From Eledone cirrhosa (taxonomy: Eukaryota): a stretch of DNA of 64,000 bases. Location of the stretch: positions 20,274,001-20,338,000 of the forward strand of contig OZ024765.1 of assembly GCA_964016885.1 (NCBI GenBank), written 5' to 3'. The translations under genes and the position numbers were made by a program. Shown here piece after piece: positions 18,699-19,991 of this stretch (position 1 is its first letter; every line of letters begins with the position of its first letter). The notes below the pieces were generated by a model that had not been told where the DNA came from, did not search any database, and saw only the letters and a program-made list of their open reading frames with translations.

Positions 18699-19152
18699 AT
18701 ATTAACAAATGGAAACTATATTTATAAAACCATATTTATTTCATTATACATATTTCAAGGGCGACCAGAGCAAACTATGGTGCGCTTTCATCAGATAAAA
18801 TATAATATAGGTTAGTTTTATAAATAAATATTGACATACCCTTAAAAAATGCAACCATTCTGGTTGGAATCTCCTGGATAGTCCATTTGTTAATATATTG
18901 TATATTTACTCCAATAATTTGTTGAGTGCTTTATATCAGTTATAAAAATATTTTGCTTGTTGTATCCCAACAAATTAAATATAACCTCTACATATATATA
19001 TATGTATATATATTAGAATTGGTGTTCTGAAATAGCGATATATATATATGAATGTATATATAGTGTATTTTGCAATACACTGTATGCTTAATTAATAGTA
19101 CTTTGAAGACCATGCTCTATCGTTTTAAAGTAGCGACATTGTCGCTTACTTA

Positions 19153-19247
19153 AATTTTCGGCAGACAGGCGGAGATAAATTGACAGCGCTGTTTCGTACT
19201 GATTGGTACTTGTCAAAACTCAGTACTCTCCCTGTCTGCCGAAAATT
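19153..19247 (-). ncRNA. Type I hammerhead ribozyme, U3:A8 core variant (copy 1)
   Basis: Minus: AGUU-UUGACAA-GUAC caauca GUAC-GAAAC agcgcu GUC/AAUU, enclosed by uuuucggcagacagg/ccugucugccgaaaa. Confidence 0.78.
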
Positions 19248-19470
19248 ATGTGTGTTGGATTCTTATAGAATTCCAGTAACAATCAGGAACTGATTATACA
19301 GAGCGGTTGTCTGTGCAGCAGAAATTGAAAATTAGAATTGGTGCTCTGAAATAGCGATATATATATGAATGTATATACAGTGTATTTTGCAATACACTCT
19401 ATGCTTAATTAAAAGAATTTCGAAGAGCTTATGCTATTGTTTTAGAGTAGTGACAGTCTCACTTACTTTA

Positions 19471-19566
19471 ATTTTCAGCAAACAGGGGAGATAAAACTGA
19501 CAGAGCTCTGTTTCGCATTTTTTTTATGCTTATCAAAGCCAAGTACTCCACCTGTTTGCTGAAAAT
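19471..19566 (-). ncRNA. Type I hammerhead ribozyme, U3:A8 core variant (copy 2)
   Basis: Minus: GGCU-UUGAUAA-GCAU a7 AUGC-GAAAC agagcucu GUC/AGUU, enclosed by uuuucagcaaacagg/ccuguuugcugaaaa. Confidence 0.78.
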
Positions 19567-19991
19567 CATGAATGTTTGATTCTTATAGAATTCTAGTAAT
19601 AATCAGGAGCGGTTTCCGGTCAAGCAGAAATTGAAAATTAGAATTGGTGCTCTGAAATAGCGATATATATATGAATGTATATACAGTGTATTTTGCAATA
19701 CACTGTATGCTTAATTAAAAGCATTTTGAAAAACATACGCTATTGTTTTAAGCAAAATACACTATATATACATTCATATATATATCGCTATTTCAGAGCA
19801 CCAATTCTAATTTTCAATTTCTGCTGGACTGGCAACTGCTCTGTATAATCAGTTCCTGATTGTTACTGGAATTCTATAAGAATCCAACACACATAATTTT
19901 ATCATGACACCAACTGTACCACTTTACAGAGTGTACTGGGTGTATTTTCTGCTAATGTATATCTCATGATTTTCATCACATCTTTTACCAG

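Follow-up and report, generated by a model that had tools for sequence, protein, structure and literature searches.

The window analyzed here, a stretch of 64,000 nucleotides of Eledone cirrhosa DNA, contains an insertion from a non-coding retrozyme family with a 319-bp unit and a high copy number; each full unit of the insertion carries a type I hammerhead motif with a U3:A8 pair in the core. On balance, the evidence favors a scenario in which this family is likely copied into (TA)n tracts by the reverse transcriptase (RT) and endonuclease of a Penelope-like element (PLE), with a small circular RNA derived from predicted self-cleavage as the likely template.

The insertion occupies positions 19012-19900 and comprises, as a sequence-only reading had first described, head-to-tail units of 319 and 306 bp, a partial third unit and an inverted fragment. 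Unit 1 (19012-19330, minus strand, 319 bp) belongs to subfamily A; it is the 3'-most unit in the ribozyme sense and stops at what is termed below the long end site. Unit 2 (19331-19636, minus strand, 306 bp) belongs to subfamily B and carries a 14-bp deletion. The 5'-truncated third unit (19637-19751, minus strand, 115 bp) spans unit positions ~203-319 and is A-type at the diagnostic sites within its span. The array is a mixture of subfamilies A and B, as is another array, at L014. The inverted arm (19752-19900, plus strand, 149 bp) covers unit positions 258-319 and then 1-89, and is broken off where a different high-copy repeat starts. The beginning of that unrelated repeat lies at 19896-19950. 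A (TA)n-type run at 18990-19011, the presumed target site, adjoins the 3' end of the array, and the last 26 nt of unit 1, read on the minus strand (19012-19037), form a tail between the short and long end sites, which would represent the span between two reverse-transcription start sites; the short site sits within the unit's own TA run. A second member of the family lies at 51744-52209 on the minus strand, with a main arm (52096-51744) running to the short site and an inverted arm (52094-52209) running to the long site. It has a U3:A8 core, but G12 is changed and stem II is broken, so that it is likely inactive judging from these changes.

Both full units of the array display complete hammerhead topology on the minus strand, in agreement with the sequence-only reading in cores, stems, GAAAC segments, GUC triplets and distal stem I arms. 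In hammerhead 1 (19153-19247), which has an extended stem I, the core UUGACAA lies at 19216-19210 (U3 = 19216, A8 = 19211), followed by stem II (GUAC/GUAC, 19209-19196), GAAAC (19195-19191) and C17 (19182), with distal stem I arms at 19243-19231/19169-19157. In hammerhead 2 (19471-19566), the corresponding elements are UUGAUAA (19536-19530; U3 = 19536, A8 = 19531), stem II (GCAU/AUGC, 19529-19515), GAAAC (19514-19510), C17 (19499) and distal stem I arms at 19563-19551/19486-19474. In both, G10.1:C11.1 closes a stem II of 4 bp, stem III is palindromic and the cleavage triplet is GUC, and both conform to the type I layout with three helices, core positions 3-9 and 12-14, the 15.1:16.1 pair, an NUH site and an open stem I. 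The cores depart from the hammerhead consensus solely at the paired U3:A8. Cuts are predicted 3' of GUC at minus-strand positions 19182 and 19499, and the monomer between them (19182-19498, minus strand) would be 317 nt long with 35% GC. A hammerhead descriptor found one match in the real window and none in 200 doublet-shuffled windows; being a greedy expression, it caught one of the two motifs. The differences in stems I, II and III that had been read as covariation between the copies are real, and arise because the two units belong to different subfamilies, A and B, whose majority sequences are 80% identical.

When the two ~100-nt hammerhead regions were folded, they proved more stable than shuffled sequences (z -6.4 and -7.5; 0 of 200 shuffles equally good), mostly owing to the long distal stem I. 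The active hammerhead is not the lowest-energy fold: constraining the two window copies to it costs 3.5 and 5.1 kcal/mol, and nearest-neighbor folding of six other copies favors the inactive fold by 0.7-6.1 kcal/mol, under energy models that ignore tertiary contacts. The competing helix joins the 5' strand of the core with the 5' strand of stem III. The proximal stem I of each window unit is also weakened relative to its own subfamily. The family hardly varies at a C-A-A-N-N-A sequence in loop II or at a GAGU segment in stem I, though both lie outside the motif used in searches; they may form a loop II-stem I tertiary contact, possibly akin to the schistosome layout. Stem III is self-complementary in all subfamilies, with computed self-duplexes of -7 to -24 kcal/mol against hairpins of +2 to -2 kcal/mol. 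By these energies, a stem III duplex joining two units would be much more stable than the hairpin within one, and animal hammerheads are described as acting as dimers in this way (PMC4209133). The mixed duplex of the window is weak (-8.0 kcal/mol) because its two units differ in stem III. Folded as a circle, the predicted 317-nt monomer reaches -79.1 kcal/mol (z -6.0), and all seven units folded in this way are predicted to be 60-68% paired, with z from -5.3 to -10.5.

The family is large. An exact motif running from the core to the cleavage site gives 3,234 matches in the 3.0-Gb genome and a single match in the reversed control, as expected of the retrozyme-type tandem family that had been proposed; this count is a lower bound, as any other change in the motif drops a copy. 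BLAST-type searches with three queries returned 2,534, 2,191 and 2,388 candidates, of which 40 per query were scored. DNA reads and contigs likewise indicate a high copy number, and copies, at least thousands in the genome, are dispersed as monomers, dimers and multimers, most arms covering 0.5-1.5 units. The majority sequences of subfamilies A, B and C share 73-81% identity, and best-matching copies sampled from each diverge by 2-4% from the majority of their subfamily; additional subfamilies differ in the length of stem III. Two long arrays hold 17 units (L171:1958-7456) and at least 10 units (L175), the units being heterogeneous. In the former, the spaced recurrence of related units suggests block duplication; position 3 is A in four of its units. 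Pieces of the unit also occur in contigs of two other organisms, one of which spans the hammerhead (window 19109-19261, 13 differences).

Genome-wide, U3:A8 accounts for 1,630 motif matches and C3:G8, by subtraction, for 1,500, so that 3,130 of the 3,234 retain a Watson-Crick pair; the remaining 104 (60 C3:A8 and 44 U3:G8) are about the level expected from the 2-4% decay of inserted copies. Since these counts are not independent events, a tree of units was built, comprising 81 of 181 units (the searches with A, B and C contributed 10 units apiece, and a parseable core was required). Well-supported branches force two changes of the 3:8 state, which are the independent switches, and none of 200 bootstrap trees had a single change. 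The tree is unrooted; drawn at its midpoint, it places both U3:A8 groups among C3:G8 units. The main switch comes after a change of 10.1:11.1 from A-U to G-C, with two intermediate copies (L178 and L179). The second U3:A8 lineage has 79 exact matches and is mismatched at A10.1-A11.1 in 27 of the 30 copies retrieved. Its amplification in spite of this mismatch questions how much activity is needed, and its switch could be explained by a short (6-nt) conversion tract from the A/B clade.

In an alignment of 54 sequences, pairing is observed in 88.9% of cells, compared to 32-43% when the alignment is slid, and double changes occur in 15 of 28 pairs, including all four of stem II. At 3:8 there are 28 C-G, 26 U-A and no other combinations, this set having been selected by the motif, which fixes stem III and the core and makes it uninformative there. 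Shuffles reached the measure "pairs with a double change" in 41 of 500 cases and the measure "further pair types" in 496 of 500. A complementary set of 105 units was picked by BLAST rather than by motif. Here, the three subfamilies agree at all 12 of 12 invariant core positions, whereas outside the core of this region they agree at 45 of 84 (p about 6e-4); position 3/8 is U/A in subfamilies A and B, while all 35 of 35 C units have C/G. Single copies differ from their own majority by 2.3% in the core and 2.8% elsewhere. As core and flanks decay alike while subfamily cores are invariant, selection acts on the amplifying lineages and not on inserted copies. Taken together with the 3,130 paired matches and the two switches on the tree, these data support the earlier proposal that U3:A8 is a true compensatory pair, covarying here inside one lineage.

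Why U-A should have replaced C-G may lie in the misfold described above. When the 3:8 pair was swapped computationally, the competing helix rose in 107 of 110 units with U3:A8, but in no more than 1 of 43 with C3:G8, because C3 pairs with a G of stem III, and U3 may thus have been favored for weakening the helix between core and stem III. Alternatively, the switch could simply reflect A+T mutation pressure plus selection for pairing in a unit of 35% GC. A more ambitious version of the account, to which we lend tentative credence at most, holds that the family records a PLE RT starting internally on a small circular RNA and travelling around it, that two amplifying lineages independently rewired 3:8 from C-G to U-A since U3 relieves the misfold, and that U3:A8 hammerheads, which three autonomous PLE families of this genome use as well, are a major overlooked class in animals.

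Evidence for the mode of insertion comes from 239 arms at 152 loci, counted after removal of duplicate or overlapping loci (as was also done for the subfamily comparison, the tree and the in silico swaps) and leaving out the window locus, two long arrays and arms touching a locus edge. Measured downstream from the cut site, 93 arms stop at 138-143 nt and 87 at 168-173 nt, defining two fixed 3' end sites about 27-30 nt apart beside (TA)n runs; ends at the two sites abutting a TA run number 157 of 201. As the ends lie in (TA)n runs, target-site duplications, longer than 4 bp in retrozymes that have them, are indistinguishable there. Among 80 inverted arm pairs, 55 have both ends at the fixed sites, and 50 of these combine one long with one short end (p 1e-10). 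A tail at one end of tandem or inverted insertions is known from PLEs (Craig et al. 2021, PMC8557442), where the (TA)n preference is tied to the CX2-5CxxC linker. Frangieh et al. (2024, PMC11167929) showed that such a tail lies between two sites inside the RNA at which reverse transcription starts, and termed it unique to PLEs. The two-site tail and the inverted pairs indicate that the family is likely mobilized by Penelope-like machinery, placing on firmer ground what had begun as a guess.

The 5' ends are informative in a different way. They are scattered over the unit, and a pile-up at the cleavage site, sought in all 239 arms, yielded no excess (6 ends compared to 7.5 expected); the cut site is crossed by 210 of the 239 arms, at loci chosen to contain the core. 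Cleaved linear RNA is therefore not the usual template, and the template of insertion is a circle or an uncut multimer. In the scenario we favor, read-through transcription of an array of at least two units would be followed by predicted cleavage after the GUC of each unit to yield a monomer of ~317-319 nt, probably aided by pairing between the palindromic stems III of two units, and the monomer would be ligated into a circle as in other retrozymes. A PLE protein, surmised from the genomic signature of (TA)n insertion, would nick (TA)n DNA. Reverse transcription would begin inside the unit, at one site ~140 nt and another ~170 nt past the cut, and the enzyme would run round the template for 0.5-3 units, often adding an inverted arm from the other site. 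The inserted copies then decay alike in core and flanks, while amplifying lineages keep 3:8 paired, having switched from C-G to U-A twice. Several points weigh against this account, in addition to the favored inactive fold, the weak mixed duplex, the weakened proximal stems I and the A10.1-A11.1 mismatch described above. One circle cannot template an array of A and B units without a template switch or a second insertion; only one of nine Xenopus retrozyme dimers cleaved in vitro in the preprint 10.64898/2026.07.22.740005; and insertion by an anole PLE in vitro needed no hammerhead cleavage (PMC11167929).

An unlikely but serious alternative is PLE-driven insertion from uncleaved linear multimer RNA, with circles rare or irrelevant and the hammerhead kept for another step, for example to free the RNA from host read-through transcripts. 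The lack of 5' ends at the cut site suits uncut multimers as well as it suits circles, a linear transcript easily yields arrays of mixed subfamilies, and long arrays exist as possible sources. In addition, the anole element took unprocessed RNA in vitro, and its hammerhead site was not an endpoint of any RNA read (PMC11167929). Against this, the double changes that preserve the 3:8 pair and the helices place catalysis-type folding under selection, and coral, mussel and axolotl retrozymes of like size accumulate as circles (PMC7229834).

Candidate PLE drivers are at hand. The genome contains 10,597 GIY-YIG candidates, of which 150 were scored. One locus (L122, G000:C1:145869800-145876500, minus strand) holds an open 938-aa RT and GIY-YIG frame with a CX4CxxC linker, flanked by terminal repeats 99% identical over about 750 bp. 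It is apparently a young, intact PLE and, by its linker motif, would be of the Neptune/Nematis type. Its 3' end lies at (TA)n and has two alternative end sites separated by about 60 nt. Its final 7 nt are those of the retrozyme long end, an identity that hints weakly at a link between the two. This element and its intact relatives are candidate drivers of the unit. Three autonomous PLE families, furthermore, carry minimal U3:A8 hammerheads 3' of their GIY-YIG frames (L091-L118 and L122-L139), with the core UUGAUAA in one family and UUGAAAA in two; another PLE family has a standard core with G15.2:C16.2.

A rival reading takes the unit to be merely the terminal repeat (pLTR) of an autonomous PLE, and the loci to be its 5'-truncated ends. 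The insertion architecture is identical to that of PLEs, PLE pLTRs bear hammerheads, U3:A8 included, both here and in Schistosoma (PMC4209133), 8 of the 152 loci have a PLE protein match inside the fetched flanks, and the inspected sample amounts to a few percent of copies. We nonetheless judge this reading improbable, as each unit is preceded by another, in series of up to 17, and the 5' ends are scattered with no fixed junction. A direct junction from the unit to a PLE body was found at none of the 152 retrozyme loci. Two same-strand cases read base by base showed a PLE with its own hammerhead-like motif and (TA)n end, apart from the unit. Only two junction-proximal matches emerged among 78 free upstream flanks, one a local duplication inside a single locus and the other a 61-nt match between two loci. 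Conversely, the unit served as terminal repeat in none of 50 PLE loci (30 + 20), in which homology to the unit was confined to the 7-nt 3' end common to one family; at one of the loci, L092, a subfamily-C-like copy is inserted in the terminal TA run of a PLE. An ordinary satellite or DNA-transposon-derived repeat with a chance or relic motif would suit the missing Rfam match considered below, the unprotected core of individual copies and the several other hairpins of the unit, yet is very improbable given a compensatory double change that occurred twice at a tertiary pair unconstrained by ordinary folding, a core invariant across divergent subfamilies, and retro-type 5' truncation with fixed 3' ends.

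With 319 bp (the class spans about 170-400 nt), 35% GC and two consecutive complete motifs, the unit fits the description of non-LTR retrozymes, which are known in animals including coral, the mussel Mytilus galloprovincialis and axolotl (Cervera and de la Peña 2020, PMC7229834). It shares with them non-coding tandem units of ~300 bp and low GC in thousands of copies, a full type I hammerhead in each unit, an organization from dimers to long arrays, a stable circular fold and the presence of PLEs in the same genome. Unlike in those retrozymes, about half of the motifs here are U3:A8 and not C3:G8, and cleavage and circles, demonstrated there, are predicted for this family. The available text of that study does not describe a two-site tail or inverted arms, and its main text has no occurrence of "octopus" or "cephalopod".

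Natural U3-A8 cores, which the sequence-only reading had implied to be novel, have in fact been on record since Perreault et al. 2011 (PMC3088659), who also reported U10.1-U11.1 and by whose statement U3:A8 is active in vitro. About 1,300 minimal U3-A8 motifs occur in Cercyon PLEs of Schistosoma mansoni (Cervera and de la Peña 2014, PMC4209133), and a U3-A8 descriptor was already employed in that work. The present family resembles the motifs of both papers in its core covariation, palindromic stem III and PLE link. The Schistosoma motifs, as described there, are minimal, mostly single and reside in pLTRs, whereas the units here form a free tandem element with a full type I hammerhead, a 3-4-bp stem III and a long stem I. 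In contrast to Schistosoma, moreover, both 3:8 states occur in sister subfamilies, allowing the switch to be placed on a tree. With endonuclease-positive Neptune/Nematis PLEs (PMC8557442, PMC11167929), the family has in common tandem and inverted 5'-truncated insertions with a tail at one end, (TA)n targets and a hammerhead near the 3' end. It differs in that the unit lacks a reading frame and is the terminal repeat of no PLE examined, and in its tail of ~26-30 rather than 30-40 nt. A recent preprint (Li, Clavereau and Pollet 2026, 10.64898/2026.07.22.740005) treats the retrozymes of vertebrates as non-autonomous derivatives of PLEs; they likewise co-occur with PLEs, whose enzymes they are proposed to use. 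There, the link consists of co-occurrence and pLTR homology, and molluscs are absent from the classes sampled according to the available text; here, pLTR homology was not found in the loci compared and the link is the insertion signature.

None of the U3:A8 copies scanned scored above threshold with the Rfam hammerhead models (best HH9, 11.7 bits vs 52), and neither did a C3:G8 sibling of the family. The miss thus reflects model coverage, and U3:A8 is not the sole reason for it. The prediction that screens based on CUGANGA would overlook the family holds for its U3:A8 copies and fails for the about 1,500 of 3,234 matches that are C3:G8. The words "ribozyme" and "retrozyme" are absent from the available text of an octopus repeat annotation (PMC13282606). 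For the giant squid, the paper on its genome counts 235 Rfam hammerhead hits (PMC6962438). Among openly accessible papers, a literature search found no account of the 319-bp family, though supplements, subscription papers, Repbase or Dfam may contain one. Earlier publications already cover natural U3:A8 (2011, 2014), retrozymes in molluscs (2020) and their dependence on PLEs (a 2026 preprint, on vertebrates); what is new is the family itself, the repeated 3:8 switch within it, the insertion signature and the combination of these known ingredients.

Retrozyme mobility in animals is an open question, for which PLE help has so far been proposed from co-occurrence and homology. Finding the PLE-specific two-start-site tail and an intact candidate enzyme in one genome makes the pairing directly testable in vitro. 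Sister ribozymes found in nature with differing 3:8 and 10.1:11.1 pairs also make it possible to explore the conditions under which U3:A8 is tolerated. The family further shows that CUGANGA-based surveys can undercount animal hammerheads by half.

Several other features accompany the family. Another family of hammerhead-like repeats, in which the core is CUGAUGA/CUGACGA and the period about 454 bp, often lies beside the 319-bp family (L009:84-968, L019:2106-2580, L025:669-1098 and L115). A tRNA-derived origin of the 319-bp unit was rejected, as the unit contains no tRNA gene. Within the window, AT microsatellites are dense, and a near-perfect inverted repeat at 18272-18528 (116-bp arms, 97% complementary, with a 25-bp spacer) is possibly a MITE; it gives sub-threshold miRNA-family matches in Rfam, and such matches in the window were dismissed as hairpin artefacts. 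A 61-bp minisatellite occurs twice, at 20293-21516 (20 copies) and 54178-56070 (31 copies). About 10 kb upstream on the strand of the ribozyme, a 666-aa open frame of tandem C2H2 zinc fingers occupies 29530-31530 (minus strand), with related 84-bp arrays at 27574-28541; this frame and the dense AT microsatellites would be in keeping with a cephalopod genome. Finally, a tRNA-Ser(CGA) called by ARAGORN at 51227-51299 (plus strand) may be the head of a SINE.
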